DNA from: Acidimicrobiales bacterium
GTDB taxonomy: Bacteria; Actinomycetota; Acidimicrobiia; Acidimicrobiales; Bog-793
DNA: 64,000 nucleotides
Reading direction: 5' to 3'
Assembly: GCA_052146895.1 (NCBI GenBank)
Contig: JBKQLZ010000006.1
Location: forward strand, 8,507-72,506
Shown here: piece by piece, positions 2,474-61,834 of the stretch
Position numbering within the stretch: the stretch's first letter is position 1
Layout of the letters: each line of letters starts with the position of its first letter
The notes under the pieces: generated by a model
Told to the model about the DNA's origin: nothing
The model's input: the letters and a program-made list of their open reading frames with translations, nothing else
Databases searched by the model: none
Program-made: the position numbers and the translations under genes

Positions 2474-2488
2474 AGCGAGGCACTCGCG

Positions 2489-3478: not shown

Positions 3479-3538
3479 CTCGCAGTCCGGGTCTTCCCAT
3501 CTCGCAGTCCGGGCGGCTCCGCTCTACCATCGTCAGAA

Positions 3539-13084: not shown

Positions 13085-14677
13085 TCAAGCGACCATGGAG
13101 TCAGACGTTGCTGCGACGACCGCATTCCTGCCCTGGCGCTTGGCGACGAGAAGCCGCCCGTCCGCCGCGGTGAGCGCAGCCTGCCAGCCCTTCGCCGGAC
13201 CGCAGGCAACCCCGAGACTCACGGTTACGTGGATTTCCGGCGCGACGGTCGCCCAGTCGAAGCCGGAGACGGCGAGCCGCAACCGCTCGGCGAATCCCGC
13301 AGCAGCAGCCAGCCCGACGCCCGGCAACGCAACCACGAACTCATCCCCGCCGTAGCGGATGGCCAGCTGCCCGTGTCGTGTCTTGCTCGAGAAGAGGTGG
13401 CCGATCTGCTGTAGCACCGCATCGCCAATGTCGTGGCCGAACTCGTCGTTGATTTCCTTGAAGGAATCGATGTCGGCGATGACGCAGGCCACTTCGTCGT
13501 GCCGCCCCGCCTCTTCGTGGAGGAAGCGTTCGAGCAGCCGACGGTTGCCCATGCCCGTGAGGGCGTCCTCCTCAGCCGACCGCGTCGCTGCCGCCGCCTG
13601 AGTTTGCAAGTCCCTGTGGGCGCGCTCGATCTCGACGCTTGCCCAAACCTGCTGCACGAGCTGACCTGTCTGGCGCTGGTGTATCTGCCACATGTGTCTC
13701 TTGGCTTCTCGGGCGCTCGTTAGCGCGCCCGCAAGATCGCCGGCAGCCTCCTCGCACGCGGCCAACTCATCGAGCGCAAACATCAAGTCGTGCTCGTCTG
13801 CGCTCGCCTGGATGATCTGCACATCGCGGCGGGCGGCAACGAGGGCTTCCTCCACCCGGCCTGCCAGGCGGAGACATCGGGCCTCGACCCATGCGAGGTC
13901 GGCGCACGGAGTTGCGGTCGTGGTCGCGTCCGCCGCGCCTCGGAACTCGCCCAGCACCTGCAGCGCATCTTCTGCTCGGCCCATCTCGCACAGGACCTCC
14001 GCGAGCAGCCGGTAATTGCCGAGCCGAGGACTCGCCACCGCCGACTCCTCGAGGAGCAATCGCCGTGCGACCGCTTCGGCGCGTTCAAGACGGTCGGTGT
14101 CGATGCCCAAGTCGGACATCCCTTGCTGCTGGGAGGCAAGGAGCAACGCGTCAGCGATGTTGTACAACTCGCGGCAGACCCTCTCACCGTCACCTATGCG
14201 CTCGGCGGCAGCGAGCGAGTACTCGAACTGCTCAACAGCCCGGTCGTAGTCCAGGTAGTAGTAGCAGAAGATCCCGAGCCGGTTGGTGATCTCCATGCGG
14301 AGACGGTCATCTTTGACCGAGTCGAGGCCAAGGATGCTCTTTGTCACTAGTTCGGAGGCAAGCGAGACGTTGCCGAGCCGAGAGGCGTGGGCGGCACCAA
14401 GACTGGCCGCGTCGACGGCGAGCTCAACGTCGCCGGCTGTCTCGAAGAGAGTCATCGCCGCCGAGGCGTCCTCGCAGGCCCCGCTGTCGAGCGACTGGAA
14501 TGATCGCACTCGGGCCCGGCAGATGAGCAGCCGGGCTCGGTCGAGAGGAGCTGTGACCGACTCGAGCGCCTCCTTGATCTGCGGCAAGCACGCCTCGCAC
14601 TCCTCGGGAGTCGACGCGAGACGCGTACGCTCGAGCAACGCGTCGATCTCGACGGCCGGATGGCTCTTCTGATTCAC
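13085..14677 (-). CDS. Diguanylate cyclase: TPR-like helical N-terminal region plus GGDEF domain
   Basis: DALTGMGNRR, IADIDSFKEINDEFGHDIGD, RYGGDEF (intact active site). No RxxD I-site at the canonical position. Confidence 0.85.
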   Translation of the reverse strand: MNQKSHPAVEIDALLERTRLASTPEECEACLPQIKEALESVTAPLDRARLLICRARVRSFQSLDSGACEDASAAMTLFETAGDVELAVDAASLGAAHASRLGNVSLASELVTKSILGLDSVKDDRLRMEITNRLGIFCYYYLDYDRAVEQFEYSLAAAERIGDGERVCRELYNIADALLLASQQQGMSDLGIDTDRLERAEAVARRLLLEESAVASPRLGNYRLLAEVLCEMGRAEDALQVLGEFRGAADATTTATPCADLAWVEARCLRLAGRVEEALVAARRDVQIIQASADEHDLMFALDELAACEEAAGDLAGALTSAREAKRHMWQIHQRQTGQLVQQVWASVEIERAHRDLQTQAAAATRSAEEDALTGMGNRRLLERFLHEEAGRHDEVACVIADIDSFKEINDEFGHDIGDAVLQQIGHLFSSKTRHGQLAIRYGGDEFVVALPGVGLAAAAGFAERLRLAVSGFDWATVAPEIHVTVSLGVACGPAKGWQAALTAADGRLLVAKRQGRNAVVAATSDSMVA

Positions 14678-14779
14678 TGCTATATGTATCGGCTAATGCG
14701 GGTCGGATCCTGAGGCTGCGCCTCAGACGGGTTCGCCGTGGCAGGGTCGTCTCCACGTCACCCTTATCGTGGGAACCTG

Positions 14780-16249
14780 ATGTCCCCCGAGACACCCCGA
14801 ATCAGTCAGAAGGTCGCCGTCGGGGTTGTCTTCGTCGCCGCCATGTTCATGTCGATCATGGACACCACCATCGTGAACGTGGCCCTGCCCACCATCGGGC
14901 GGACATTTCACGTCGCCCCCACTGCTGTCAGTGCCGTCTCGATCTCGTTCCTCGTCAGCCTTGCAGTGTTCATCCCAGCATCAGGGTGGCTGGGTGACCG
15001 GCTCGGCGGCAAGCGTGTCCTGCTCACCGCCATTGTGATCTTCACGCTCGCATCGGCGCTCTGCGGGCTCGCACAGAACATGACCGAACTGGTGCTGTTC
15101 CGGATCCTCCAAGGTGTCGGTGGCGGCATGCTCGCCCCCGTGGGAATGGCAATGCTCTACCGGGTCTTCCCACCCGCTGAGCGAGTGCGTGCCGCGAGCA
15201 TCCTCACTACCCCGACTGCCCTCGCCCCCGCCCTCGGTCCGGTGCTCGGCGGCCTGCTCGTGTCCGACCTCTCGTGGCGCTGGGTCTTTTACGTCAACCT
15301 CCCCATCGGGTTCGCTGCGATCGTCTTCGGGGCCTTCTTCCTCGAGTCGGTGCCGGAGGCGAACCCCGGACGCTTCGACCTGCCGGGTTTCCTGCTCGCA
15401 GGTGGCGGTCTCGGCCTGCTCATGTACGGGGTCTCCGAGGGACCGAGCACCTCTTGGGTCGCCACCGATGTTCTCGGGACCATCGCAGCCGGCGCCCTCC
15501 TGCTTGGTTGGCTGGTCCGGTACGAGCTGCGCGCCCCCGAACCGCTCATTGACTTTCGCCTGCTGGGCAACGCGCTCTTCCGGGTTGGCACCGGGGCAAT
15601 CCTTCTCACCACAGGGGCCCTGATCGGAGTGCTCTACGTCATCACCCTCTTCTACCAAGACGGCCGGGGCATGTCCGCCCTCCAGGCGGGCCTCAGCACC
15701 TTCCCCGAGGCGCTCGGGGTGATGGTGGGAGCGCAGCTCGCGTCCCGGGTCATCTACCGGCGCCTCGGACCCCGGCGCCACGCCGCCATCGGGAACCTCG
15801 GCATCGCCGTGTTCGTCGCTCAGCTTGCCCTGGTGGGGGCACACACCAGCCTGTGGGTGCCGCGGCTCCTGCTCTTCGGGATGGGCCTCGCCCTGGGCCA
15901 GGTCTTCGTCCCCATCCAGGCGGCCTCCTTCGCCACCATCTCCCCGGCGGCCACCGGCCGAGCCTCCACGATGTTCAACGCCGTGCGACAGCTCGGTGGC
16001 GCCATCGGGGTCGCAGCGTTCAGCTCGGTGGTGGTGGCGGTCGGAGCGGTCCATCTCGTCGACCACCGGCCCATGGCCAATCTGGGCGCTTACCATGCCG
16101 CCTTCCTCACCGCCGCAGGCTTCGCCATCCTCGCGTCGCTCGCCAGCCTGAAGATCCGCGACGCCGACGCGGCATCCACAATGGTGAGCCGGCACCAGAT
16201 GTCGGCCGAGAGCGAAGCCGCACCGAAAGGGCTCGCCCTCGAGGGCTAG
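14780..16249 (+). CDS. MFS transporter, DHA2 (EmrB/QacA, 14-TMS) family
   Basis: MDTTIVNVALPTIG signature, GWLGDRLGGKR, about 14 hydrophobic segments. Confidence 0.85.
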   Translation: MSPETPRISQKVAVGVVFVAAMFMSIMDTTIVNVALPTIGRTFHVAPTAVSAVSISFLVSLAVFIPASGWLGDRLGGKRVLLTAIVIFTLASALCGLAQNMTELVLFRILQGVGGGMLAPVGMAMLYRVFPPAERVRAASILTTPTALAPALGPVLGGLLVSDLSWRWVFYVNLPIGFAAIVFGAFFLESVPEANPGRFDLPGFLLAGGGLGLLMYGVSEGPSTSWVATDVLGTIAAGALLLGWLVRYELRAPEPLIDFRLLGNALFRVGTGAILLTTGALIGVLYVITLFYQDGRGMSALQAGLSTFPEALGVMVGAQLASRVIYRRLGPRRHAAIGNLGIAVFVAQLALVGAHTSLWVPRLLLFGMGLALGQVFVPIQAASFATISPAATGRASTMFNAVRQLGGAIGVAAFSSVVVAVGAVHLVDHRPMANLGAYHAAFLTAAGFAILASLASLKIRDADAASTMVSRHQMSAESEAAPKGLALEG

Positions 16250-29187: not shown

Positions 29188-31044
29188 TTGGGCGTTCTGT
29201 CGGTCTGGATGTTCGCGCGTGTCTGGGTGACGGGAAGCCCTACGAGCACCCTCTTGTGCCAGTGCGGGGACCCGGGGCAGGCGGTCTGGTTCATGGCGTG
29301 GGTGCCGTACGCGATCACTCACGCTCACAATCCTCTCTTCACCAACCGGATGATCTCAGGACAAGGCGGTGCGAACCTGCTCGAGAGCACCTCGTACCTC
29401 CTGCCGTCATTTCTACTGTCGCCGATCACGTGGCTGTTCGGCGCGACCGCATCGTTCAACGTCGCCGAGACGATCGCACCGATCCTCTCGGGCTGGGCGA
29501 TGTACCTCGCCACAGTGCGCCTCACGACGCGGTGGCTGCCGAGAGCCGCAGCGGCGGTCTTCTGGGCTTTCTCGCCGCACATCGTCGGGTCCGAGGTGTA
29601 CGGGCATCTCAACTTCACGTGGATGTACTTCCCTCCGCTGTTCTTTCTCTGCGTTTACGAGCTCGCCGCGGGCAAGCGGCTCAAACCGGTGACGATCGGC
29701 CCGTTGCTCGGGGTGCTTGTCGTCGCGCAGTTCTTCACAGGCACCGAGCCTCTGTTGATCACGACGATTGTGGCAACGGTCGGACTTGCGTGCGCCTTGG
29801 CGATGGCACCGAAGGCAGCATGGGCCGAGCGCAAGCGGATCCTCACCGGTCTTGGCGTTGCCGTCGGTCTCGCCTTCGTGGTGCTCGCCTACCCGCTCTG
29901 GTACCTCACGAAAGGCCCTCGCCATGTGATCGGATCGCCCTGGCCGGCGATCAACAACCTCGGCAACCAGCTCTCGGCGATCGTCAAACCTGGGAACGGC
30001 GTTCACTCGGCGTCGGTCTTCACCGAGATCGGCGGCTACTACGGGCCCGCGGGGCCCTCCGGTGCTTACCTCGGCATCTGGCTCCTCGCCTTCCTCGCTG
30101 CGTCGCTACCGGTGTTCGTGATCCTCCGGCGGCGCATCGCCTTGCCGCTTCTCGTGAGCGGGGGGGTGAGCTGGTTGTGCTCGCTCGGTGCGTTTCTCAC
30201 CCCGATCTCGGCGAATTCCGTGCACTGGTGGCTGCCCTGGCGCTACATCAACTCCTGGCCACTAATCGACAAGATCGGACCGCAACGCTTCGCGTTCATG
30301 ACCGCCGCCTGCGCCATCTTGCTGTTCGCCCTAGCCCTCGACAGCTGGGTCACGGTGCTGACACCACCGGTCAGCCGGCTACGTCTTCATCCCCGCGCGC
30401 TCACGGCCGGTTCGAGCGTCATCATGTTGGCGATCGTCGCGGTCGTAGGGCTCCCGGTCGCCGAGAACTACACGTTCCCGCTCACGATGCTCTCGGAGCA
30501 GGTGCCGGCGTGGTTCCGCACCACCGCTCGGACACTTCCACCGCAGACCTCGATCCTCACCTATCCCTACGCTTCGTCCGCTGCGCCGGACGCGATGTAC
30601 TGGCAGGCGTATGACGGGTTAAGTTTTGCCCTCGTCGGCGGGCGGGCGCTCATCCCCGGCGCCGACGGGAAGCACTCCCAGCACGTCGACCCGTTGCGCG
30701 GGAGCTACGCGCTTTTGACAAACGACTCGTGGGGGATCAACGCGCCGCCGATGCCAACAAGGTCGGAGGTACAGGCGCTGAGGTCATCGCTGCACTCGTG
30801 GCAGGTCGACGTCGTCGTGGACGTCCCGGAAGGACGCGCACCCGCGTGGGCCCTGCTCCTGTTCTCCGAGGCGACCGGCAGGTTGCCGCAGTTCCAGCAC
30901 GGTGCCGCGGTCTGGACAGTTGCGCGGGAGGCGGCCGCCCCGGTGTGGCTCTCGGCCGGAGTGGCAAGGCACTGCATCATTCAGCTGCAGTCTCTTGCCG
31001 GTCTAGAGAACGCGGACGCTTGCCTGGCCGGTGACTTCGGCTAA
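29188..31044 (+). CDS. Large polytopic membrane protein with C-terminal extracytoplasmic domain (possible GT-C-fold glycosyltransferase; uncharacterised)
   Basis: About 12 hydrophobic segments. First loop CQCGDPGQAVWFMAWVPYAITHAHNPLFTNR. The ORF part upstream of 29188 overlaps the divergent MFS gene and is rejected. Start is TTG 29188 or ATG 29209. Confidence 0.65.
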   Translation: MGVLSVWMFARVWVTGSPTSTLLCQCGDPGQAVWFMAWVPYAITHAHNPLFTNRMISGQGGANLLESTSYLLPSFLLSPITWLFGATASFNVAETIAPILSGWAMYLATVRLTTRWLPRAAAAVFWAFSPHIVGSEVYGHLNFTWMYFPPLFFLCVYELAAGKRLKPVTIGPLLGVLVVAQFFTGTEPLLITTIVATVGLACALAMAPKAAWAERKRILTGLGVAVGLAFVVLAYPLWYLTKGPRHVIGSPWPAINNLGNQLSAIVKPGNGVHSASVFTEIGGYYGPAGPSGAYLGIWLLAFLAASLPVFVILRRRIALPLLVSGGVSWLCSLGAFLTPISANSVHWWLPWRYINSWPLIDKIGPQRFAFMTAACAILLFALALDSWVTVLTPPVSRLRLHPRALTAGSSVIMLAIVAVVGLPVAENYTFPLTMLSEQVPAWFRTTARTLPPQTSILTYPYASSAAPDAMYWQAYDGLSFALVGGRALIPGADGKHSQHVDPLRGSYALLTNDSWGINAPPMPTRSEVQALRSSLHSWQVDVVVDVPEGRAPAWALLLFSEATGRLPQFQHGAAVWTVAREAAAPVWLSAGVARHCIIQLQSLAGLENADACLAGDFG

Positions 31045-32222: not shown

Positions 32223-32297
32223 GGACCTGTGGTGCAGCCTGGAGTGCACGCCGGCCTGTCAAGCCGGAGGTCGCGGGTTCAAATCCCGTCAGGTCCG
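32223..32297 (+). tRNA. tRNA-Asp (anticodon GTC)
   Basis: Acceptor GGACCTG/CAGGTCC, D-stem GTGC/GCAC, anticodon stem CCGGC/GCCGG with loop CTGTCAA, T-arm GCGGG-TTCAAAT-CCCGT. Confidence 0.9.
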
Positions 32298-32368
32298 CCC
32301 ATTCGTCGTCAGGTGCCCAGCTGACGAGCGCCTTTCTCATGACGCGGTACGCTCTCGGGCGACCACTA

Positions 32369-32441
32369 GGTCGGGTAGCTCAGTTGGTAGAGCGCGCGCC
32401 TGAAAAGCGCGAGGTCACCGGATCGATGCCGGTCCCGACCA
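32369..32441 (+). tRNA. tRNA-Phe (anticodon GAA); integration target of the adjacent islet
   Basis: Acceptor GGTCGGG/CCCGACC, D-arm GCTC-AGTTGGTA-GAGC, anticodon loop CTGAAAA, T-arm ACCGG-ATCGATG-CCGGT (unusual A at position 54). Confidence 0.85.
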
Positions 32442-32442
32442 C
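32397..32442. repeat. attL: 46-bp direct repeat (3' half of tRNA-Phe)
   Basis: cgcctgaaaagcgcgaggtcaccggatcgatgccggtcccgaccac is identical to 37703-37748. Confidence 0.9.
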
Positions 32443-32467
32443 ACAGGAAATAGCCATCTACCAGGTA

Positions 32468-32540
32468 TTTCGCGTCTAATTTTGTCGTTCGTCCAAGTGC
32501 TCGAAACAGGGCAGGACGCGCAAAAGACGCGAAAGACGCG
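32468..32540. promoter_or_regulatory. Cluster of AGACGCG(A/C)AA-type repeats inside the attL arm (putative integrase arm-type sites)
   Basis: Inverted copy atttcgcgtct (32468-32478). Direct copies ggacgcgcaaaagacgcgaaagacgcg (32514-32540). The same motif recurs at 37548-37585. Confidence 0.45.
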
Positions 32541-32676
32541 GCGTGACCCGCCTCAGCGAGGTTTCGGGGCAAACTGGTGGCAGCTGGCACCCTCGTGTGA
32601 GCCTCGGTCCAACGGACCCTCTCGTTCAGATCACTCCCCCGGCGTTTCGCGCCGTGGTTCATGGGAGGAGAGGCCG

Positions 32677-33831
32677 ATGGCCGAGCCAAAGCGACTTCCG
32701 AGCGGACGCTGGAAGGTCCGCTACCGGGACCCATTGGGGCGCCCGCGAAGCAAAGTGTGCAACACGAAGGGCGAGGCGCGCGCCTACGTCGAGGAGATCG
32801 GTCACGCCGCGCGTCATCGCGAATGGATTGCTCCCGAGCTCGGACGGATGCTCCTTGCCGACTGGGTCGCGAAGTACATGTCCACCGTCGTCCATCTCCG
32901 TCCGACGACGGTCTGCCTCTACGAGCGGGAGTTCGAGCACATCCTTCGACGCTTCGGTCAGACGCCACTGATCCAGCTCGAGCCGCTCGCAATCCAGGCG
33001 TGGCTCGCCGAGCTTCTCGCGGGCGACATGGCCGCTTCTTCGGTCCATCGAAAGTACCGACTGCTGCGCCGGACCCTCCAAGTAGCAGTGGAGAAGGGAG
33101 TCATTGCCAAGAACGCTTGCAACAGCGTCCAGCCGCCGCACGTGGAGCTGAACGAGATGCATTTCCTCCTTCCCGAGCAGGCCGTCGCACTCGCCGAGGC
33201 CATCGGCCCCTGGTACCGGACGTTCGTCTACACCGCGCTGGAGACGGGCATGCGCTGGAGCGAATTGGTCGGCCTTCGACGCTCCGGGGTCAACCTGTTG
33301 CATCGCAGCATCGCTGTCACCGAACAGCTCGTGTTCATCGCCGGCGACCCGACGACCGGACGAGAGAAGCGATGGGTTCGACAGCGACCGAAGACGCGGG
33401 CCGGTGTGCGATCGATCACCATCTCGCGCTTCCTCACCGAACGCCTGCAGGAGCAGCTCGCGGAGCGCTCCCAGCCGGGACAGGATGGACTGGTCTTCAC
33501 CAACCAGCGCGGTAACGCGATCGGTGGTTCGATCTTCAACAAGCGGCACTGGCAGGCCGCCCGAGCGGCCGTCGGAGTCCCTGACCTCCGCTTTCACGAC
33601 CTTCGCCACACGGCGGTCGCGCTGGCGATCGCCCAGGGCGCTCACCCGAAGGCGATCCAGCGGCGCATGGGTCACTCGACCATCAACATGACCCTTGATC
33701 GGTACGGCCACCTGTTCCCCGAGTTGGACGAGCAGATCGCCAAAGATTTGGACGGCGTTCTTCGCATTGCCTACTCGGCTCAACCGGATCGAAGTGCCGT
33801 CTCGACCCTCTCCCGAGCAAACGCTGAGTGA
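32677..33831 (+). CDS. Tyrosine-type site-specific recombinase (phage integrase family)
   Basis: N-terminal SAM-like domain (RLPSGRWKVRYRDPLGR), catalytic region GMRWSEL, HDLRHTAVALAI, HSTINMTLDRYGHL. RBS gggaggag upstream of ATG 32677. Confidence 0.9.
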   Translation: MAEPKRLPSGRWKVRYRDPLGRPRSKVCNTKGEARAYVEEIGHAARHREWIAPELGRMLLADWVAKYMSTVVHLRPTTVCLYEREFEHILRRFGQTPLIQLEPLAIQAWLAELLAGDMAASSVHRKYRLLRRTLQVAVEKGVIAKNACNSVQPPHVELNEMHFLLPEQAVALAEAIGPWYRTFVYTALETGMRWSELVGLRRSGVNLLHRSIAVTEQLVFIAGDPTTGREKRWVRQRPKTRAGVRSITISRFLTERLQEQLAERSQPGQDGLVFTNQRGNAIGGSIFNKRHWQAARAAVGVPDLRFHDLRHTAVALAIAQGAHPKAIQRRMGHSTINMTLDRYGHLFPELDEQIAKDLDGVLRIAYSAQPDRSAVSTLSRANAE

Positions 33832-33986
33832 GGTGCCGCGCTCCACTGGGCCGCTGAGCTAGAAGCTCGTGGCTTCCGCTCCAGGCCGACCGCCGAGGAA
33901 GCGTCGACCTTCAACAATAACGATCGGGGTAGCAACCCCGGCGAGGCCATCGAGCGCTTCTCGAGTCGCCGTCGTACGCTCAGACA

Positions 33987-34673
33987 ATGGCTCAGTCGCA
34001 GGTAGAGACACATACGGCGGCTGTGGTTGCGAGCGTGCGAGCGAAACTCGGTCGTCGAGCTACTTGGCCCAAGTTTCCGGGCGGCTACCCCGGCGACATC
34101 GAGAGCGCCCTCATTGATGCCGTCTTCTCCTCACGCTATGCATACGACACCACGTACGGCCGAGGTCTCGGACCGAAGATGGCCCTTTGGCGCCAAGGCC
34201 GCGTACGCGGAACGAACGATCCGTCTCTTGGGGCACTCATCAGAGATATCGCAGCTAACGGACCCGCGTCCTGGGCTACCGCACATTTCACGATGCATAT
34301 TTCGGGACGGGGTAAATCCAAGCGACTCAAAGCCGAAGTCGTATTCGAGGCGGCGCACGCCCTTCGATGGCAGGGGTTCGATGTCGCCGCGGATGTAACT
34401 CCTGCAAGGCTTTATGAATTCTTTGACATCTTGCAAGCAGTCGCCGGCATCGGCCTTCCGACGGCTCGATACATGTCAATGCTTCTTGGTTTCAAAGAAG
34501 TCAAGCCCGACCGGATGATCCACCGTTTTATCCACAGCTCTACCGGAGAATGGGTTGGTCACGCCAAAGCGATCGTAATAGCACGAATCACGACCCGATC
34601 CTCAGGGGAGGGCCGCTCGCGTGACGAAAGAAAGATCAGCGCGAATGCTGCGCTTAGGCGGCTCACCGGATGA
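33987..34673 (+). CDS. Hypothetical protein with helix-hairpin-helix (EndoIII/AlkA-like) motif
   Basis: VAGIGLPTARYMSMLLGFKEVKPDRMIHRFI parallels LPGVGRKTA...P.DTH..R of HhH-GPD glycosylases, with no Lys at the EndoIII position. Lower-GC gene inside the islet. Confidence 0.55.
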   Translation: MAQSQVETHTAAVVASVRAKLGRRATWPKFPGGYPGDIESALIDAVFSSRYAYDTTYGRGLGPKMALWRQGRVRGTNDPSLGALIRDIAANGPASWATAHFTMHISGRGKSKRLKAEVVFEAAHALRWQGFDVAADVTPARLYEFFDILQAVAGIGLPTARYMSMLLGFKEVKPDRMIHRFIHSSTGEWVGHAKAIVIARITTRSSGEGRSRDERKISANAALRRLTG

Positions 34674-34797
34674 CGCACGGCTCGCCAACAAGGAGTTCCA
34701 CGGAACCTCGTGGGCTCATCACAAGCATACGGTCGACAACCCGACATGAGGCGTCATTGCCGAGGGACGCGTCCCCGGCGCCGAGTAGAAATCAGCT

Positions 34798-35334
34798 GTG
34801 GAAGAACCTCTCCTGTATATCTTCGACGCCCTCAAGGTTCCCTATGGGCTGCTCTCATCGGAAGAATCGCGGATGCGGTCGGCGGCGTCTCAGCTACTGC
34901 GTCGAACTCCAGTAGCTGTGAACCTCCTGCGGATCGAGGAGGACCCAAAGAGTCAGATGACTGGCAAGCTGTGGGAAACGCTCGAGCCGATGTTGGACAT
35001 CGCCGAATGCGTAATCACCTCCGTCGCCGAGGCCCTGGGTGAAGGCGCGCTCGATCCACTCATCGGCGGTTACCCGAATCCGAATCGAGCTCGTCCCCTG
35101 GACTCATTGCCCGAGTTGCAGCAACGGATCATTGAAAGAGTCGGACCGGCGCCTGGTTGGGAAGAGGCTGTCGAAACTCTTGACGATCTCTTCAAAGAAG
35201 CCGAGCATGATCCGACTGTCCTGCCAGAGGGGCTGAAAGCTGGGCCGTGGCCGACCATGATCATGTGGCAACTCATCGCCGAACTTTGCCGTTTGGCTGA
35301 TCGTCCTGGCTGGCCGATAGCTGATAACAAGTAG
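34798..35334 (+). CDS. Hypothetical acidic helical protein (islet cargo)
   Basis: 178-aa ORF on the same strand as the HhH gene. No recognisable motif. Coding-like composition but lower GC than the host. Confidence 0.45.
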   Translation: MEEPLLYIFDALKVPYGLLSSEESRMRSAASQLLRRTPVAVNLLRIEEDPKSQMTGKLWETLEPMLDIAECVITSVAEALGEGALDPLIGGYPNPNRARPLDSLPELQQRIIERVGPAPGWEEAVETLDDLFKEAEHDPTVLPEGLKAGPWPTMIMWQLIAELCRLADRPGWPIADNK

Positions 35335-35429
35335 TGCCGCGACCGGTTACCTGCGCCGTGTGAGCAATGTCCAAGCCTGGCCCGACTCACGTTGGGCGTC
35401 ACGGGGCTCGCTTCCATTCACCTATCTGC

Positions 35430-36158
35430 TCAATTACGCAGTTGGGTCCTTCCTGAGGACCCGCGGCGGTGTAGCTGGGCCTCGATCCAGTGGCGAACGT
35501 CATGTTCGACCTCGTCCGCCGTGCGAGCGGCATCTATGACTGTGGCCGTCGGTATCTCGCTCGCGGCTGCCACCAGGGTGCTGTTGAATTCGACACACCA
35601 GTCGATGCGTGCAGCGCCTCGCCGAGGGTCGCGGCCGGTGCGGCGTGCGAGCAGCACGTCAGGTGGGCAGGTCAAGCACAAGAAATGCACCGAGTCGAAG
35701 TAGCTGAGGAGGTCTGCGTTCGCGAGTATCTGTTCAGGCAGCATGACAGCGAAGTACACGACTACGACGTCGTTCTGGGCGAGTTCGTGAGCGAGCCGCA
35801 TCCAGGTCCGCCAAAAGGCAGGGTAGTCATCGTTCGATGCGCTGATGAGGTCTGCACCGAGGATGTCAGTGTCGAGAAGAATCGCGCCGCGGATTGTTCC
35901 TGCGAGCCGAGCACAGAGCGTGGACTTGCCGATACCGGGGGTGCCGATGACGATCAGCAGGGGCGGCCGGATGAAAGGGCGCTCGTCGTCGCAATGCGGG
36001 CACCGCAGCACGCCGCCAACCGGGGGAATTTGATCGGGCCAGACGCTGTCAGGCAAGGCGAGCCCGCGTCCGCAGGCCTCACATGTGAATGGCACACCTC
36101 CATCATGTCGCCAAGACGAGGTCAGAGGCTGGCTCGCCACCCACTTCAAGCAGCGCAA
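35430..36158 (-). CDS. Zinc-ribbon plus P-loop NTPase/kinase-like protein (islet cargo)
   Basis: CEACG-x22-CPHCD zinc ribbon followed by Walker A GTPGIGKST, LLDTD, and hydrophobic Walker-B-like VVVVYF. Size and layout resemble small-molecule/nucleotide kinases. Confidence 0.65.
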   Translation of the reverse strand: MRCLKWVASQPLTSSWRHDGGVPFTCEACGRGLALPDSVWPDQIPPVGGVLRCPHCDDERPFIRPPLLIVIGTPGIGKSTLCARLAGTIRGAILLDTDILGADLISASNDDYPAFWRTWMRLAHELAQNDVVVVYFAVMLPEQILANADLLSYFDSVHFLCLTCPPDVLLARRTGRDPRRGAARIDWCVEFNSTLVAAASEIPTATVIDAARTADEVEHDVRHWIEAQLHRRGSSGRTQLRN

Positions 36159-36218
36159 ACATTGTCTGGCGCAGTACTAGCCGCCTTCGAGTTCCGACGC
36201 GGGCGTGCGAGGTAAGCG

Positions 36219-36710
36219 TTACTGGGCTGCCTCATCGACGTTAAGGACCCACGGCTGCGGCGCCGCGGTGACGGGATTCGTGTAGGTGAGGGTAAGAGTG
36301 AACGGCACGGTTTGCCCTGGTTGGACGTTATTCAGCTGGAAGTTGCCCGTGCCGTCGCCGAGCGCGTTGGCGTTGTTCTGGTCGCCAACGCTGACGATGT
36401 AGCTATTCGCGGTCTTGTCGCCGTTCGTCAAGGTCCCGCTGACGCTGGCCGCAAGTCCGCCGGCATTGAGGACAGCGCTGGTGAAGCGGATCGAGCAATT
36501 CGACAAGTTTCCTGCACACGGGCCTGTTGGGAGCGTCGTCGTGGTGGTAGTCGTCGCTGCGGTGGTAGTCGTCGCTGCTGTCGTAGTCGTGGCCTTCGGC
36601 ACGGTCGTCGTTGTCGGGGCGACCGATGTGGTGCCGCAGGCTCCCCCCAATATCGCTACGGCCGCGAGGCCGACCCACCCGGCGTACCTGCGAATTCGGA
36701 GGGAGACCAC
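36219..36710 (-). CDS. Thr-rich lipoprotein with C-terminal beta-rich domain (islet cargo)
   Basis: Signal plus lipobox AILGGAC and a poly-Thr/Ala linker that includes a perfect 18-bp tandem duplication (36543-36578). The C-terminal domain is rich in T/N/G/V. Confidence 0.6.
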   Translation of the reverse strand: MVSLRIRRYAGWVGLAAVAILGGACGTTSVAPTTTTVPKATTTTAATTTTAATTTTTTTLPTGPCAGNLSNCSIRFTSAVLNAGGLAASVSGTLTNGDKTANSYIVSVGDQNNANALGDGTGNFQLNNVQPGQTVPFTLTLTYTNPVTAAPQPWVLNVDEAAQ

Positions 36711-36813
36711 TTCTTCAGCAAACTACTCGGAGACACTCAGCCTGATTTCCAGCAGCCACCTGATGACGAGCGATTAGCCGACTTCCCTAAAACGCTGCCG
36801 GCTCGCGTCTCTC

Positions 36814-37173
36814 CTACGACGGGCGGCGCACCCTGACGAGATGGCCGCGAACAATGACAATGCAACCTCGGAACTCTTCGAGGTCGTGATGCGTCGTCAG
36901 CGAGGACAGCGTTGAGAGCACCGACGACACTGCCTGACTGTCGGGGCGCAGGACAACGATCCCACCATGCGATCCGGGCGGATAAGAGCGCACGTCCCCG
37001 AATCCGCGATCGAGGGTGACGAGCACTCGATCCTCTGAGCTGGCAGCCGCAAGAACTGCCGGGTCGTCGCGACCAGCGAGGCCTTCACCGATCACCGTCT
37101 CGACGTCATGGCCGATCTCCGTGAGGACCTGACCAGCGCTCGCCGGGAGGTTTTCGTCGAGCTTGACCTTCAC
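36814..37173 (-). CDS. DUF5615-family (PIN-like) putative toxin
   Basis: MKVKLDENLPASAGQVLTEIGHDVETV...DRVLVTLDRGF. 4-nt overlap with the upstream DUF433 gene. Confidence 0.8.
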   Translation of the reverse strand: MKVKLDENLPASAGQVLTEIGHDVETVIGEGLAGRDDPAVLAAASSEDRVLVTLDRGFGDVRSYPPGSHGGIVVLRPDSQAVSSVLSTLSSLTTHHDLEEFRGCIVIVRGHLVRVRRPS

Positions 37174-37412
37174 CCTTGGGTCGGGTCGAGCGGCATGATC
37201 TCGTCACGAGCGAGCGCCGCTGCGTAGGCGAGCGCGGCATGGACCACTCCTTGGGGCAAGGTCGGGTACTCCTTGCGCAACGCATCCTCGCTCATGCCTT
37301 CCGCCAAGCAATCCAGCACGACGGTCACCGGAACGCGGGTGCCACGGATCACCGCCTGGCCGTGCAGCACGGCCGGGTCCGATGTGATCAAGTCGAGAAG
37401 CTCCGTAGCCAT
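37170..37412 (-). CDS. DUF433-family putative antitoxin
   Basis: ITSDPAVLHGQAVIRGTRVPVTVVLDCLAEGMSEDALRKEYPTLPQGVVHAALAYAA. ATG at 37412. Confidence 0.8.
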   Translation of the reverse strand: MATELLDLITSDPAVLHGQAVIRGTRVPVTVVLDCLAEGMSEDALRKEYPTLPQGVVHAALAYAAALARDEIMPLDPTQG

Positions 37413-37547
37413 GTCACCATGATCGCGCCTGAGCGAGCACACTGCTCTGTCGTCGGCTCGTGCTAGTAAGGACGATCTCGACGCGGGCCGATGGCACCGC
37501 CGGCGAACGCCAAGCGGTCCGTACCGGTCGCAAAGCGCGGTCCAGAA

Positions 37548-37585
37548 GGACGCGGAAAAGACGCGCGAGGACGCGAAAAGACGCG
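37548..37585. promoter_or_regulatory. Cluster of GGACGCG/AAAAGACGCG repeats inside the attR arm (putative arm-type sites)
   Basis: ggacgcggaaaagacgcgcgaggacgcgaaaagacgcg shares its core with the 32514-32540 cluster. Confidence 0.45.
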
Positions 37586-37702
37586 AATTCGGCGATACTG
37601 GGCGCGACAGGGCAACACCGAACAACATAGAGAAAGTGACTCTGAACAGGGAGAACGTCGGCTGAGCAGGACGAACGTCCGTTCGGAATTGACCCCGGAT
37701 TA

Positions 37703-37748
37703 CGCCTGAAAAGCGCGAGGTCACCGGATCGATGCCGGTCCCGACCAC
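37703..37748. repeat. attR: 46-bp direct repeat identical to the tRNA-Phe 3' half
   Basis: Base-for-base identical to 32397-32442. Flanks diverge immediately on both sides. Confidence 0.9.
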
Positions 37749-37839
37749 TGAAAGGCCCTGGTAGGGCGGACACGCCAAGCCCATCTTTCGGCTGAGCGGT
37801 CGACCGTGCCCTCTACGTGCCTTTCGGCTGACCGCATGC

Positions 37840-38073
37840 TCAGCGCTCGCGAGCCAGCACGTCTTCGGAGTCGTAAGCGCCCTCGTGGCCCGCAGGACAC
37901 TCGAACAGCACCCCGAGCAGCACGACATGACCATCGCGGATCGACTCGAAATCCCAAACGTTCGGAAGCAGGAATTCCGTCAGGCAAACGGCGCAATGTA
38001 CCGCGGCTGTCGCAGACGTGTATTCCACCAGTTGCCTGACCCTCGGCTCTTCATTTGCGCGACGAGCGGGCAA
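37840..38073 (-). CDS. Hypothetical small protein
   Basis: 77-aa ORF in an otherwise unassigned gap just outside attR. One CxxC plus CPxxH. No motif recognised. Confidence 0.3.
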   Translation of the reverse strand: MPARRANEEPRVRQLVEYTSATAAVHCAVCLTEFLLPNVWDFESIRDGHVVLLGVLFECPAGHEGAYDSEDVLARER

Positions 38074-53073: not shown

Positions 53074-54255
53074 ATGTCTGTTTCACCGTCTGTTTCACCG
53101 TCATACCTCACGCCTGACCAGCTGCGGCGTGACCAGGCAATTCGCGACCTGTCAGATCCGGCCCATGGCGCCCACGCGCTCCAGCTGCTCGTCGAGAGCG
53201 CCGTGGAGCGGCTCGTGAACGCCTGGAACTGCCAAGTCCGCTGGTGCCGCGGGCCCCGGGTGGTGCCCGTGGCGGACAACTACGACCGGCTGGGTTTCGC
53301 AGCTGACGCGATAAGTCGCGAGACCCGTTACACGCGCTACGTCGACCCGGGTCACGTGCTGCGTAGCCACTCGAGTGCGATGGTCCCTCGAGCGCTGCGC
53401 GAGCTCGCCGCCTCGCCCTTCGACGACGTCCTGCTCACCTGCCCTGGCATCGTCTTCCGCCGGGACGCCATCGGCTGGCAGCACACCGGCACGCCGCAGC
53501 AGCTCGACCTCTGGCGGATCACCCGGGAGCCGATGGGGGACGGTGACATGGACGACATGATCTCGTCTCTTCTCCAAGTGCTCGCTCCGGGCCGCGTTCA
53601 TCGAGAGGAGGCACGGGTGCATCCGTACACCCTCAACGGTCGCCAGATCGACGTCTTGTGGGACGACCGCTGGGTGGAGGTGTGGGAATGCGGAATTGCA
53701 CACCCAGCCGTCCTCGAAGCCGCCGGCCTCGCGGGTTGGCACGGGCTCGCCCTCGGGATGGGCCTCGATCGGCTCCTAATGCTGACCAAGGGCATTCCCG
53801 ACATCCGGCTCCTCCGCTCGACCGACCCGCGAGTGAGCCGTCAGATGCTCGATCTCTCCCCGTACCGACCGGTGTCCTCGATGCCGCCGGTCAAGCGTGA
53901 CCTGTCCATCGCCGTCGCTGCGGACGAGGACGAGGAGACCCTTGGTGACCGAGTCCGCGACGCGCTCGGCGACGATGCCTCCAGCGTCGAAGAGGTAGCT
54001 GTCCTCTCAGCCACGCCGTACTGCGATCTGGCTCAGCCGGCACGCGCGCGCCTCGGGGCGCTCCCCGGGCAGAAGAACGTTCTTGTCCGGGTGGTGCTGC
54101 GTGCTCTGACCGATACGCTCACCGACGGTCGGGCAAACGAACTGAGAGACCGTGTCTACGCGGCGCTACATCAAGGCGCGGCTTTCCAGTGGGCCGTCAC
54201 CCACGCAGCGACCGAGCCTCACTCAGCCGGCCGGGAACCTAGCCTTGAGCTGTGA
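53074..54255 (+). CDS. PheS-like class II aminoacyl-tRNA-synthetase core fused to an FDX-ACB (ferredoxin-fold anticodon-binding) domain; paralogue of unknown function
   Basis: Motif 2-like CPGIVFRRDAIGWQHTGTPQQLDLW and motif 3-like GLALGMGLDRLLMLTKGIPDIRLLRS. The C-terminus (PVSSMPPVKRDLSIAV...VLVRVVLRAL) resembles an FDX-ACB fold. No PheS N-terminal coiled coil and no pheT nearby. Strong RBS aaggag. Confidence 0.75.
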   Translation: MSVSPSVSPSYLTPDQLRRDQAIRDLSDPAHGAHALQLLVESAVERLVNAWNCQVRWCRGPRVVPVADNYDRLGFAADAISRETRYTRYVDPGHVLRSHSSAMVPRALRELAASPFDDVLLTCPGIVFRRDAIGWQHTGTPQQLDLWRITREPMGDGDMDDMISSLLQVLAPGRVHREEARVHPYTLNGRQIDVLWDDRWVEVWECGIAHPAVLEAAGLAGWHGLALGMGLDRLLMLTKGIPDIRLLRSTDPRVSRQMLDLSPYRPVSSMPPVKRDLSIAVAADEDEETLGDRVRDALGDDASSVEEVAVLSATPYCDLAQPARARLGALPGQKNVLVRVVLRALTDTLTDGRANELRDRVYAALHQGAAFQWAVTHAATEPHSAGREPSLEL

Positions 54256-54870: not shown

Positions 54871-55278
54871 ATGGCGAACAGGCGCAGGCGAAGCACGTCG
54901 GGCCGCCCGGCGGTGATCGCGCTCCTCGTCTGTATCGGCTTGGTTATCGGGCTCGCTGCGGCATTTGCAGCCAACAAGTCCCAATCGAGCGCTCCGCCAT
55001 CTCCCGTCACCGCGAAAGCGGTCGTCGTGGCAACCCTCAAGCCGGACGTATCGAGCGCGGAGGCGACCGCGATGTCCAACCATTACCTGACTTTTGCGGG
55101 CGTCGCCGCTGTGCAGGCAGTGGGCACTTCCTCCGAGGAGTTCTTCATGGCCCAAACTGCGACGACCTTGCAGATCGATGCCGTCGAGTCCGCTCTGCAA
55201 TTCGATCCGTCGGTCGCTCACGTGAGCCTCGAAGGCCCGAGGACATGCGAGAAGACCTGCCTCCGAAGTAGCCGATGA
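54871..55278 (+). CDS. Membrane-anchored hypothetical protein (FtsX-extracellular-domain-like alpha/beta module)
   Basis: Arg-rich N-terminus, one TM (VIALLVCIGLVIGLAAAFAA), then VVVATLKPDVSSAEATAMSNHYLTFAGVAAVQAV. Confidence 0.45.
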   Translation: MANRRRRSTSGRPAVIALLVCIGLVIGLAAAFAANKSQSSAPPSPVTAKAVVVATLKPDVSSAEATAMSNHYLTFAGVAAVQAVGTSSEEFFMAQTATTLQIDAVESALQFDPSVAHVSLEGPRTCEKTCLRSSR

Positions 55279-55751
55279 CGACCGAGAGGATCCGGTCTCG
55301 GCCACTCCAGGTACTCGCGGCTATCTGGATCGCCCTGTCCCTCATCCCGATAGGGATCTGTGTCAACGCCATGATCGGCGCGACGGCGGCGGTGACGCTC
55401 GTAGCGCTCTCAGTGCTGGCTGTGAACGTCATCATCGGGATCGTTCTCGTCCGGCTCGCCCGCACTGGAATCGATCTCGACTCGAGAGGCGTCGTCGTGA
55501 GGAACCTGATGCAGACCGAGCGCGTGCGCTGGGCGGAGATCTCGGGCGTCGGGCGCGACAGGGTCGAGGGCTTGCCAGAGGCGGCTCGTTCCGACCAGCC
55601 CGTCCGGATCCACCGGTATGCCGGGTCGGACGTCGTCGTGGGTGGTCTCCTCGTCACGAAGTCGGAGAAGAGCCGACGCGCCATCGAGGCGCTCGTGGTC
55701 TACCTGAACCAGCGACTCGAAGCGTCTCGCTCCGCCCTCGGGCCGACGTGA
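55275..55751 (+). CDS. Membrane protein with bacterial PH-like domain
   Basis: Two TM segments followed by GIDLDSRGVVVRNLMQTERVRWAEISGV. ATGA overlap with the upstream gene. Confidence 0.5.
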   Translation: MTTERIRSRPLQVLAAIWIALSLIPIGICVNAMIGATAAVTLVALSVLAVNVIIGIVLVRLARTGIDLDSRGVVVRNLMQTERVRWAEISGVGRDRVEGLPEAARSDQPVRIHRYAGSDVVVGGLLVTKSEKSRRAIEALVVYLNQRLEASRSALGPT

Positions 55752-55755
55752 GCCA

Positions 55756-56577
55756 TTAGGTGATCGCAGCCTCGTCGGGGCACGCCGTCGTCGACGAAGC
55801 GCTCGTGGTAGTCGTCGTCGTATCCGCGTTCGGCAGATAGATGGTGGTGCGCCAGGTGGAGATCTGGTTGCCCGAGTACCCGGCCGTGCGGGGCCCCGTC
55901 TGGAACCCGACAGAGATGTTGACGCTGTCGATGTCGAACAAGGCGCAGGCAGGCACCGTGCCGTTGTCACTACCGCTGGCTCCGAGTTGGTTCCCGAGCG
56001 AGTCGAAGTACTCGAACGAGTAGGTGTTCGTACTCGTCACGTTTGTTGGAGCGATCGAGTCTGTCGCCTCGATCGTGGAAGATTTACCGGACGGATTGGT
56101 CACGACGACGGCGAACACCCACGGATTGTGCCCCGTTGGAGGCGTGCCGCAAGAGGGGACTTTGCTGACGAGCGAGCCGAAGCAGGCCGTGAGCGTATCT
56201 GTCTCCGCTGCACCGTACGTGCCGGGGTAGGTGGTGCCGGCAATGGTTCCCGTGTTGTCGTCGATGCCCGAGTACGTGGTCATCGTGAAAGACGTTGCGC
56301 CTGCTGCCGTCAGACCTACGGCCGCGTGGAGGAAGGGCGTCACGGCTTCGGACGCGATCTGTTCCTGCTGAAGCGAGTACTCCGTCCCGAGCACCGAGGA
56401 CGACGACTTCTCGAGCAGGACAACCGCAGCTGCGCTGAGAGCCATGATGATCGAGATCACGAGGAGCGTGACGAGCATCTCAGTCAGCGAGAAGCCGCTG
56501 TCGTCGCCTACTGCGCGCTTGCGGGTGGCTGCCAGCGCGATCCGAAACGGAGCTCGGACGGTGCCTTGACGATGCAT
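55756..56577 (-). CDS. Type IV pilin-like protein (prepilin N-terminal cleavage/methylation domain), 273 aa
   Basis: Class III signal: basic leader, G|FSLTEMLVTLLVISIIMAL with Glu at +5. Ser/Thr/Gly-rich extracellular part. RBS gaggcgggag before ATG 56577. Confidence 0.75.
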   Translation of the reverse strand: MHRQGTVRAPFRIALAATRKRAVGDDSGFSLTEMLVTLLVISIIMALSAAAVVLLEKSSSSVLGTEYSLQQEQIASEAVTPFLHAAVGLTAAGATSFTMTTYSGIDDNTGTIAGTTYPGTYGAAETDTLTACFGSLVSKVPSCGTPPTGHNPWVFAVVVTNPSGKSSTIEATDSIAPTNVTSTNTYSFEYFDSLGNQLGASGSDNGTVPACALFDIDSVNISVGFQTGPRTAGYSGNQISTWRTTIYLPNADTTTTTTSASSTTACPDEAAIT

Positions 56578-56588
56578 GCTCCCGCCTC

Positions 56589-59066: not shown

Positions 59067-59091
59067 CTTCTGCTCCCTCGGGCAGGTCCCA

Positions 59092-60717: not shown

Positions 60718-60941
60718 CTCCCGCACTCGTAGGCGTCGCAAAGTCACCTCAGCTATACGGTGCAGCACAAGAAACGGTCGTTGCACAGTCACTCATAGTA
60801 GTACTACGAACACGGCACGCGCGAGTCAGCGTAATCCGATAACACGAGACTACATAAGAACACACCAGACGCCCTCGCCTCAACACCTCGGCTACGACGC
60901 GAGCTTAGGGCCCTCGGGCGCGAGGTGATAGGACAGGCGAC

Positions 60942-61742
60942 TTGAGGACTCCGGTCGTCCACGAGTTCGTAATCGTCATGAGTGCGCTGTTCGGTCTCGT
61001 CATCGGATCGTTCCTCTCCGTGGTCACCTCGCGAGTGCCGCGCGGCGAGTCGATCGTCCACCCCAATTCCCATTGCCCGAAGTGCGGGAGCGAGATCCAG
61101 CCTTACGACAACATCCCTCTGTTGTCTTACGCCGTCCTCGGTGGGCGGTGCCGCTCATGTTCGGTCCACATCCCGTGGCGCTACCCGCTGCTCGAGGCGA
61201 CCACGGGCGCCTGCTTCGCGATGATCGCCTGGCGAGTCGGTTCAGCTTGGACCATCCCGCCCTTTTGCGTACTGGCAGCCGGCCTGATCGCGGTGTCGGT
61301 CATCGACATCGACCACATGAGGGTGCCGTCGGCTGTGCTCTTCGTCACCGGCGGAATCGCCGCACCCCTTCTTCTCGTCGCGTCGGTGGAGACTCGAACG
61401 ATCGGACACCTTCTATATGGGTTGCTGGCCGGTGTCGCGGCGTTCGCGCTGATGTTCGGCATCCGCGAGGCCTACCGGTCGGGACTCGGTTACGGCGACG
61501 TGAAGCTCGTCGCGCTCGATTCCTTCTTTCTCGGTTCGCTCGACACGCGGGGCGCAGGTCTTGCGATCGCGGGCGTCGCTCTGTTGCTAGGCGTCATCCT
61601 TGCCGGGGCCTTCTCGCTCGTGCTCGTCTCGAAGGGCACCGCGAGCGGAAAGACGAGACTCCCTTTCGCGCCGTTCCTTTCGGCGGGCGCCCTCACAGCA
61701 GTGTGCTTCGGGCCTGCAATAGTCAGGGTCTGGATCGGATGA
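60942..61742 (+). CDS. pilD: Prepilin peptidase (A24 family, PilD-like)
   Basis: N-terminal Zn-ribbon CPKCGSEI...CRSC, catalytic Asp motifs VIDIDHMRVP and GLGYGDVKL, 6-8 TM segments. Start may be ATG 60978. Confidence 0.9.
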   Translation: MRTPVVHEFVIVMSALFGLVIGSFLSVVTSRVPRGESIVHPNSHCPKCGSEIQPYDNIPLLSYAVLGGRCRSCSVHIPWRYPLLEATTGACFAMIAWRVGSAWTIPPFCVLAAGLIAVSVIDIDHMRVPSAVLFVTGGIAAPLLLVASVETRTIGHLLYGLLAGVAAFALMFGIREAYRSGLGYGDVKLVALDSFFLGSLDTRGAGLAIAGVALLLGVILAGAFSLVLVSKGTASGKTRLPFAPFLSAGALTAVCFGPAIVRVWIG

Positions 61743-61834
61743 GCGCCGCCCGATGGCGGACTCCGACGCTGTCATATGTACTGCTACCGTCAGCTCATGA
61801 CCCAGGCTGAGCGCACAGCCTTCCGACGCGCCCG

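Follow-up and report, generated by a model that had tools for sequence, protein, structure and literature searches.

A 5,306-bp, probably non-autonomous islet integrated in a tRNA-Phe gene of an uncultured Acidimicrobiales bacterium

What kind of element occupies the tRNA-Phe gene's 3' end in an uncultured Acidimicrobiales bacterium (lineage Bog-793), and is it still able to move? The locus lies in a 64,000-nt stretch of assembly GCA_052146895.1 (contig JBKQLZ010000006.1, positions 8,507–72,506), hereafter the window, whose numbering is used throughout. An earlier note, made from the letters of the sequence, took the 5.3 kb behind the tRNA for a minimal, non-autonomous integrative element carrying cargo plus a toxin-antitoxin (TA) pair. 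Empty sites in relatives, an integrase clade specific for tRNA-Phe and the absence of any mobility gene beyond the integrase support this proposal, and we consider it very likely that the segment is an integrated, precisely delimited, non-autonomous tRNA-Phe islet of 5,306 bp.

The islet is bounded by a perfect direct repeat of the tRNA 3' part. A repeat search of the window found the core in the tRNA and the core at the far end (Table 1) identical at 46 of 46 positions, with a start-to-start spacing of 5,306 bp. The left boundary of the repeat, marked here by a slash (...GAGCGCG/CGCCTGAAAAGCGCG...), falls within the anticodon stem, in its 5' strand, and the last letters are the discriminator base plus one nucleotide. 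Outside the repeat the two copies part at once, with GCGCG against GATTA to the left and ACAGG against TGAAA to the right, so that the repeat, its origin and the immediate divergence of its flanks all stand as the earlier note had described them. By a hand estimate, an exact 46-mer repeat is expected by chance about 1e-19 times in 64 kb. An intact tRNA gene (67.8 bits) accompanied by a displaced fragment of the same tRNA, the configuration sought by the Islander approach, is present at this locus. The predicted attP junction reads ...CCCCGGATTA-[46-bp core]-ACAGGAAATAGCC..., and the predicted repaired attB junction reads ...GGTAGAGCGCG-[core]-TGAAAGGCCCTGG....

The two nearest sampled species carry the empty site. 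Syntenic loci were fetched from species-representative genomes via a lineage-specific 611-aa membrane protein encoded 1.3 kb upstream (29209–31044). In the closest relative, the Acidimicrobiaceae metagenome-assembled genome palsa_601 (L011), the flanks are 86–95% identical, and the alignment reaches the end of tRNA-Phe and then passes into the homologue of window positions 37749–38039. In L013, also from an Acidimicrobiaceae genome (~77% identical), the homologue of 37749–37769 directly succeeds tRNA-Phe, and the counterpart of the window's GGDEF-EAL gene (start at 38197) lies ~250 bp further on. The 46-bp core is identical in both relatives. Relative to L011 and L013, whose tRNA-Phe is joined directly to the homologue of 37749, the 5,306 bp set off by the repeats form a discrete insertion, and both the insertion and its exact limits are direct observations; the search for an empty site, proposed in the earlier note as a check, thus gave a positive answer.

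A separate irregularity lies close to the same site. L011 contains an extra 2.36 kb (13439–15796) ~300 bp downstream of its empty attB, between the equivalents of window positions 38039 and 38068, with open reading frames (ORFs) that, judged by their translations, seem to encode an ECF-sigma-like protein of 277 aa, a Ser/Thr/Gly-rich protein of 344 aa and a secreted protein of 173 aa. Two contigs of GCA_052148255.1 break at window position 38020 (the end of L001 and the start of L009). The site ~300 bp downstream of attB looks like a second variable spot beside the tRNA.

A repeat of this kind might also have arisen in assembly, or tRNA-Phe might have had its 3' end duplicated locally beside an unrelated recombinase, with no insertion at all; the metagenomic origin of the assembly is the only circumstance in favor of this explanation. 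Exact-protein look-ups yielded further contigs of this organism, which belong to three independent NCBI assemblies and several Logan assemblies. The attL and attR junctions each recur at an identity of at least 99.9% in GCA_052148255.1, GCA_052915825.1, and GCA_052916085.1, and the repeat is no artefact because both junctions recur in independent assemblies. A 33-kb contig (L001) takes in attL, attR and everything between them at 99.993% identity to the window, a second (L008) leads from the core across attR into the 12 kb that follow, and two more (L003 and L010) span one junction each. Additionally, the relatives differ from the window by a precise 5,306-bp indel with the repeat as its boundary, and the integrase clade is tRNA-Phe-specific. 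The artefact or local-duplication explanation is effectively refuted, and we give it practically no weight. In L008, attR (5286–5331) carries a single A-to-T change, CCCGACCAC to CCCGTCCAC, which makes the repeat imperfect in that strain, as expected for a displaced tRNA copy free of selection.

Two features of these contigs were considered as signs of excision or mixed alleles. The length of L003 (5,371 bp) is near the 5,306-bp unit, which raised the idea of a circular assembly of the excised element; this was rejected, since BLAST aligns the contig collinearly with the integrated copy, beginning at tRNA-Asp. Contigs that begin within the core (at 32413 and 32418) could have pointed to mixed alleles; this was rejected for the Logan contigs (start at 32413), as the break fits a k-1 = 30 nt overlap on the 46-bp repeat under the assumption of a Logan k of 31. 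L003, from GCA_052916085.1, matches the window at 99.96% identity over tRNA-Asp, tRNA-Phe, and the islet, and its first 137 nt (1–137), 5' of tRNA-Asp, match neither the window nor the other loci, representing either a rearrangement or a chimeric contig end.

The islet encodes an apparently intact tyrosine integrase of an Acidimicrobiia lineage. The recombinase with HxxR and catalytic Tyr motifs that the earlier note placed directly inside attL is indeed there, and its residues R193, K239, H307-x-x-R310, H333, and Y343 are invariant across 15 clade members. The XerC/XerD and integron models remain far under their cut-offs (for example, 71.8 vs 335 bits), which makes it the internal non-Xer, non-integron tyrosine integrase expected of an Islander island. 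It has 1,905 homologues at E <= 1e-20, and the best annotated phage integrases, those of actinophages, are only ~30% identical. No close relative was found in IMG/VR viral contigs, and a scan of metagenome contigs with the integrase-clade alignment was uninformative, as the integrases among the matches listed were at most 41% identical and the two motifs used were generic. Elsewhere in the window, positions 13388–13504 on the minus strand give a weak tblastn match to the C-terminal region of the integrase (38% over 39 aa, E 0.008), which suggests another tyrosine recombinase, possibly of the Xer type.

The close relatives of the integrase share its target and differ in cargo. We examined the genomic context of five close homologues (69–92% identical), representing five distinct elements at six loci. 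At five of the six (L014, L015, L016, L017, and L019), the integrase lies ~200–250 bp 3' of tRNA-Phe(GAA) in the same orientation, usually after tRNA-Asp, and the sixth contig (L018) starts within the att core. Cargo differs at each of the tRNA-Phe integrase loci. L015 carries two hydrolase-cyclase proteins, and L019, with an integrase 92% identical to that of the islet, carries a 188-aa protein and a 457-aa protein (2419–3792, minus strand) with a weak TIR/CAP12-Pycsar TIR match (8e-5). In L018, where the integrase is 87% identical, the int region and the DUF5615/DUF433 region match the islet at 92% nucleotide identity, and the 2.1 kb in the middle, with two unrelated 212-aa ORFans (1400–3500) between the shared int and TA backbone, is unrelated to the islet. 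Beyond DUF433, L018 continues for more than 1.1 kb that the islet lacks, with a frameshifted HTH-like ORF of excisionase-like appearance; once stitched, this ORF matches HTH_17 at E = 0.12, which is not significant and suggestive at best. The attR sites of these relatives were not recovered from L015 and L019, whose contigs end too early. At L014, none is detectable within 11 kb, so some copies in the integrase family decay.

More distant relatives are fuller elements at another tRNA. Three integrases 47–49% identical to that of the islet (L104, L105, and L106) all stand beside tRNA-Cys(GCA), which shows a switch of tRNA target between Cys and Phe within the integrase lineage. All three elements have an HTH_17 excisionase-like gene, directly before int in L105 and L106 and elsewhere in L104; a TrwC relaxase is encoded in L104 and L105, and L106 has a DUF433/DUF5615 pair and an AbiEii gene. 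The picture is of a lineage of integrases of integrative mobilizable elements (IMEs), whose tRNA-Phe branch includes stripped-down, cargo-swapping islets.

Table 1. Features of the islet and its insertion site, in window coordinates
Feature	Position	Strand	Evidence or remark
tRNA-Asp, just 5' of tRNA-Phe	32223–32299	+	ARAGORN
tRNA-Phe(GAA), intact target gene	32369–32442	+	ARAGORN; Rfam RF00005, 67.8 bits over 32369–32441
Core repeat, tRNA-Phe copy	32397–32442	+	Perfect direct repeat D1; same as attB in the empty-site relatives L011 and L013
Left cluster, three A(A/G)GACGCG octamers (32513, 32524, 32533)	32513–32540	+	Between core and int; putative arm-type Int sites
Tyrosine integrase, 384 aa	32677–33831	+ (reads away from tRNA)	PF00589 1.3e-21; two SAM-like N-terminal domains; phrog_1 1.5e-69
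p228, Ogg/HhH-GPD-like fold, 228 aa	33987–34673	+	No Pfam match; AlphaFold and Foldseek
p178, helical ORFan, 178 aa	34798–35334	+	No Pfam match; AF2 pLDDT 76.8
Zinc-ribbon and P-loop predicted (nucleotide) kinase	35430–36095, called 221 aa, ORF to 36158	-	AAA_33 1.6e-6; nearest structure PDB 2bdt 6.6e-6
Secreted or lipoprotein-like protein, 163 aa, Thr-rich linker	36219–36710	-	ORF translation; weak FxLYD match 0.005
DUF5615 (PIN-like) putative toxin	36814–37173	-	PF18480 3.8e-19, profile positions 1–107/110; PIN_10 5e-4
DUF433 (COG2442) putative antitoxin	37170–37412	-	PF04255 2.3e-20; gene call in L001
Right cluster, four A(A/G)GACGCG octamers (37547, 37558, 37568, 37578)	37547–37585	+	~120–155 bp before attR; putative arm-type sites
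attR core, displaced tRNA-Phe 3' fragment	37703–37748	+	Direct repeat

No mobility gene other than the integrase was found in the islet. Searches with Pfam, PHROGs, NCBIfam, and PADLOC returned no excisionase, replication, relaxase, capsid, terminase, or transfer gene, which, together with tblastn, bears out the earlier note's list of missing functions, and the only intergenic ORF long enough for an excisionase (37491–37709) has no family match. The seven islet genes contain no FtsK/Tra-like, type IV secretion system, or Rep domain, as an integrative and conjugative element (ICE) or its actinomycete form (AICE) would have; the relaxase of an IME is likewise absent from the islet, in contrast to the TrwC of L104 and L105; and PHROGs yielded the integrase and P-loop noise only, with nothing typical of a prophage or of a phage-inducible chromosomal island (PICI). 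With their defining genes sought and found absent, the islet falls outside the ICEs and AICEs, the strict-sense IMEs, the prophages, and the PICI-like satellites. Because it lacks a relaxase, replication, or packaging gene, it cannot move between cells by itself, and because it lacks a directionality factor, its excision should be inefficient or dependent on a factor supplied by another element.

Helper dependence of another kind is implied if the islet is a phage satellite, PICI-like or "minimalist," that is induced and packaged by a helper phage. Small size and an integrase at one end are in keeping with this idea, and small integrase-only elements at tRNA genes coexist with PICI-like ones elsewhere (Hackl et al., bioRxiv 10.1101/2020.12.28.424599). 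However, the searches found neither AlpA/Xis nor a gene for a primase or Rep, a terminase, a capsid, or interference, the IMG/VR viral contigs gave no close integrase relative, and the fuller relatives contain relaxases rather than phage genes, all of which makes a satellite very improbable.

Two clusters of direct repeats are probably arm-type integrase-binding sites. The seven octamers all lie on the plus strand with a spacing of ~10 bp, about one helical turn, and neither cluster is more than ~160 bp away from an att core. A simple Poisson estimate puts same-strand triplets that fit into 30 bp at ~1e-4 per window. The left cluster recurs at the same position in four relatives (three copies each in L018 and L019, two each in L015 and L016), a fifth (L014) having one copy there, and is conserved down to integrases 69% identical. 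Repeated sites in both arms apart from the core, as required for a heterobivalent system, are thus found in the sequence. The integrase relatives carry precomputed PF26003 Integrase_N_phage labels, and residues 1–58 are strongly conserved across the clade; an N-terminal arm-binding domain is only suggested by these features. The integrase resembles the lambda/L5-type heterobivalent integrases of actinophages in its ~30% identity, its SAM-like core-binding and catalytic domains, and the clustered direct repeats on both arms, whereas the islet has neither phage genes nor Xis, and its arm-binding domain and arm sites are deduced from sequence. Membership of the heterobivalent class is partly supported.

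The variable middle of the islet encodes rare proteins. p228 belongs to a family of 18 proteins among 5.8 billion clusters, and none of the 18 matches the Pfam HhH-GPD models. An AlphaFold (AF2) model built from the family alignment reached a mean pLDDT of 84.6, and the top Foldseek matches shown were nearly all HhH-GPD proteins, including human and mouse OGG1, S. pombe Mag1, and archaeal Ogg, at a moderate level (E ~2e-3, TM ~0.5). When the p228 profile was compared with PDB sequences, archaeal 8-oxoguanine glycosylases came first (E = 0.025), with the G-I-G hairpin and the invariant Asp175 of p228 aligned on the helix-hairpin-helix motif and the catalytic Asp of archaeal Ogg, and the PADLOC OGG model matched at 0.007. 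The residue at the position of the Schiff-base Lys is not Lys. The model is consistent with an Ogg-like fold and leaves glycosylase activity uncertain.

The C-terminus of p228 is atypical for its family. The last ~35 residues (34590–34673) are unrelated to the C-terminal helix of the family, and the LDHAIW motif found there in other members is absent in every frame; a simple frameshift as the explanation was rejected. This structure suggests a deletion or recombination junction within the cargo, and the copy may be damaged. A conserved partner gene of p228 was also considered and rejected: its homologues in L020 and L021 have upstream neighbors that show no relation to one another, and p178 homologues are missing from both loci. 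The homologue in L020 (8001–8687, 41% identical) is found near a NikA-like protein, large TPR/AAA_16 proteins, an AbiEii toxin, and DUF2637, which looks like a mobile or defense-type neighborhood.

The other cargo genes range from orphan to widespread. p178 has 13 relatives among 1.84 billion representative proteins, and its model matched no solved fold in a fold search. The zinc-ribbon kinase has more than 230 homologues, of which the 120 listed are 60–84% identical and bear JGI names such as "broad-specificity NMP kinase" or "predicted kinase."

The cargo differs in base composition from the host genome. The region of p228 and p178 (33832–35429) has 59.6% G+C, and G+C at third codon positions (GC3) is 0.60–0.63 compared with 0.79–0.84 in flanking host genes. 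The whole islet has 62.3% G+C versus 65.9 ± 1.3% for other 5.3-kb windows, the lowest value against 97 non-overlapping windows, and only 4 of the 97 are as distant in tetranucleotide usage. The earlier note's claim of AT-richer cargo between about 33.85 and 35.4 kb is real; however, the deviation is modest and stays within p228 and p178, while int and the TA pair are host-like in composition.

The DUF433 and DUF5615 genes at the right end form a predicted TA pair. The pair that the earlier note saw in the cargo is clearly recognizable in the profile matches (2.3e-20 and 3.8e-19), and the two genes overlap by 4 nt. A TA function is a reasonable prediction because experiments on one PIN-COG2442 (DUF433) pair, VapBC10 of Synechocystis, have demonstrated a TA system (PMC3834315). 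The islet pair resembles the PIN-COG2442 type II systems (PMC3834315; Makarova 2009, PMC2701414) in having a DUF433/COG2442 gene upstream of an overlapping PIN-like gene and differs from them in its toxin, a DUF5615 protein (PIN_10-like) instead of a canonical VapC. A literature search on DUF5615 together with DUF433 found nothing.

Taken together, the features of the islet are compatible with integration by its own integrase. A circular form carrying attP would recombine with the tRNA-Phe attB in a reaction catalyzed by the tyrosine integrase of the element. The crossover would most likely occur in the anticodon-loop region, because the 46-bp identity block begins in the anticodon stem; this position would correspond to Islander class A (anticodon-centered), to which about half of the mapped islands belong (PMC4383910). 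The copy of the tRNA 3' half brought by the element would then restore the tRNA-Phe gene. The octamer clusters may let the integrase assemble an intasome in the manner of lambda-type heterobivalent integrases, and the DUF433/DUF5615 pair, acting as an addiction module, would penalize loss of the islet. The islet belongs to a lineage whose fuller members are mobilizable elements with HTH_17 and TrwC, and of these parts it retains only int and the att sites, together with the predicted TA pair and a swappable cargo.

Several observations weigh against reading the segment as an islet with a working recombination module. The octamer is not enriched window-wide (15 found versus 12.2 expected), its clustering alone being unusual, and the right cluster is without comparison, as attR was captured from no relative. 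Residues 1–70 of the integrase gave no match to an arm-binding N-terminal domain in Pfam. No HTH_17, Xis, or AlpA protein that could serve as a recombination directionality factor (RDF) was found in the islet or in the 64-kb window, and tblastn with the HTH_17 proteins of L104–L106 was also null. The exact attP junction (8 + 46 + 8 nt) had 0 matches in JGI metagenome contigs, a weak negative in a collection that probably lacks the source samples, and these contigs gave no excised circle or attP as evidence of excision or integration, which the Islander definition also looks for. The compositional deviation is, as described above, modest and limited to two genes. Regarding activity, every same-species contig is occupied.

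A rival reading takes the segment for an immobilized remnant, the stump of a larger integrative mobilizable element or prophage that would have lost excisionase, relaxase, and oriT and would be fixed in the species, kept by its TA pair, and no longer excised or moved. The islet is without RDF, relaxase, or replication gene, whereas fuller relatives have HTH_17 and TrwC, and the right end of L018 is >1.1 kb longer, including the frameshifted HTH-like ORF that the islet is missing. The occupied same-species contigs, the missing attP junction, the loss of the conserved C-terminal motif from p228, the attR drift begun in one strain (L008), and the L014 integrase, which sits at tRNA-Phe with no attR detected within 11 kb and indicates decay in the integrase family, all point the same way. 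In contrast, the integrase is full-length with all its catalytic residues, the repeats are identical at 46 of 46 positions in the islet's own genome, the octamer clusters are kept on both arms, and relatives with integrases 87–92% identical have other cargo, implying recent turnover on near-identical backbones; moreover, the HTH_17 match of L018 is not significant. An immobilized remnant is a serious candidate to which we assign a little less than an even chance. Within the reading of the segment as a non-autonomous islet, the odds between a still-excisable and an immobilized copy are roughly even.

The non-autonomous islet is a textbook tRNA-gene (tDNA) genomic island in kind, clean but ordinary, and shows the features of the Islander definition that can be checked in silico. 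Islander lists thousands of tDNA islands with size peaks at 13.6 and 39.9 kb (Hudson, Lau & Williams 2015, PMC4383910). Like them, the islet lies between an intact tRNA and a displaced 3' fragment of it, has its integrase beside the tRNA, is missing from relatives with an empty site, and has an identity block that starts in the anticodon stem. Unlike them, it measures 5.3 kb, far under both peaks, and contains no excisionase or other mobility gene. The actinobacterial IMEs represented by L104–L106 (HTH_17 Xis, Int, and TrwC) share with the islet homologous integrases (47–49%), a tRNA target, and a DUF433/DUF5615 or other TA pair; they differ in targeting tRNA-Cys and in carrying an excisionase-like gene and, in two cases, a relaxase, whereas the islet targets tRNA-Phe and has neither gene.

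A functional parallel is found in the tycheposons and "cryptic" integrase-only elements of Prochlorococcus, where about half of the surveyed elements have an integrase or excisionase as their sole hallmark (Hackl et al., bioRxiv 10.1101/2020.12.28.424599). Those, too, are small, sit at tRNA genes, and shuttle variable cargo, and a tyrosine recombinase at one end faces inward; they belong to another phylum and integrase lineage, and the islet is without a replication module and without evidence of vesicle or virion packaging. A bolder proposal, which we regard as unlikely, is that the islet belongs to an undescribed, still active family of tiny, excisionase-less, tRNA-Phe-specific "cargo cassettes" of Acidimicrobiia. 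Such cassettes would combine a conserved int/att/TA backbone with a swapped 2–3 kb middle enriched in new anti-phage genes (Ogg-like here, TIR in the sister element) and would be the actinobacterial counterpart of the cryptic integrase-only elements beside tycheposons.

The islet leaves the current understanding of genomic islands unchallenged, and its value lies in annotation and possible application. It provides, with exact limits, 5,306 bp of horizontally acquired DNA along with a usable set of attB, attP, and Int from poorly studied, uncultured Acidimicrobiales of peat and soil metagenomes. Together, the integrase, the 46-bp core, and the octamer arms make up a compact integration module, apparently specific for tRNA-Phe, which might find use as a genetic tool in Actinomycetota. 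The rare proteins of the variable middle, namely the Ogg-like family (n = 18), the helical ORFan (n = 13), and the TIR protein of the sister element, are plausible candidates for new defense genes.

Two other regions of the window deserve mention. The most deviant 5-kb stretch lies at ~55000–61800 (tetranucleotide distance 0.236, 62.3% G+C), a region that may be a second acquired one. It contains a prepilin-like N_methyl gene (55756–56607, minus strand), two large ORFs with no Pfam match (56589–59108 and 59092–60792, minus strand), and a prepilin peptidase A24 gene (60942–61742, plus strand), followed by a gene for a Wzy_C protein (61835–63724, plus strand). Positions 53074–54255 on the plus strand encode a 393-aa protein that unites a PheRS-type tRNA-synt_2d domain (1.3e-28) and an FDX-ACB domain (8e-6) in one chain, an architecture that recalls the monomeric mitochondrial PheRS and not the bacterial alpha2-beta2 enzyme.

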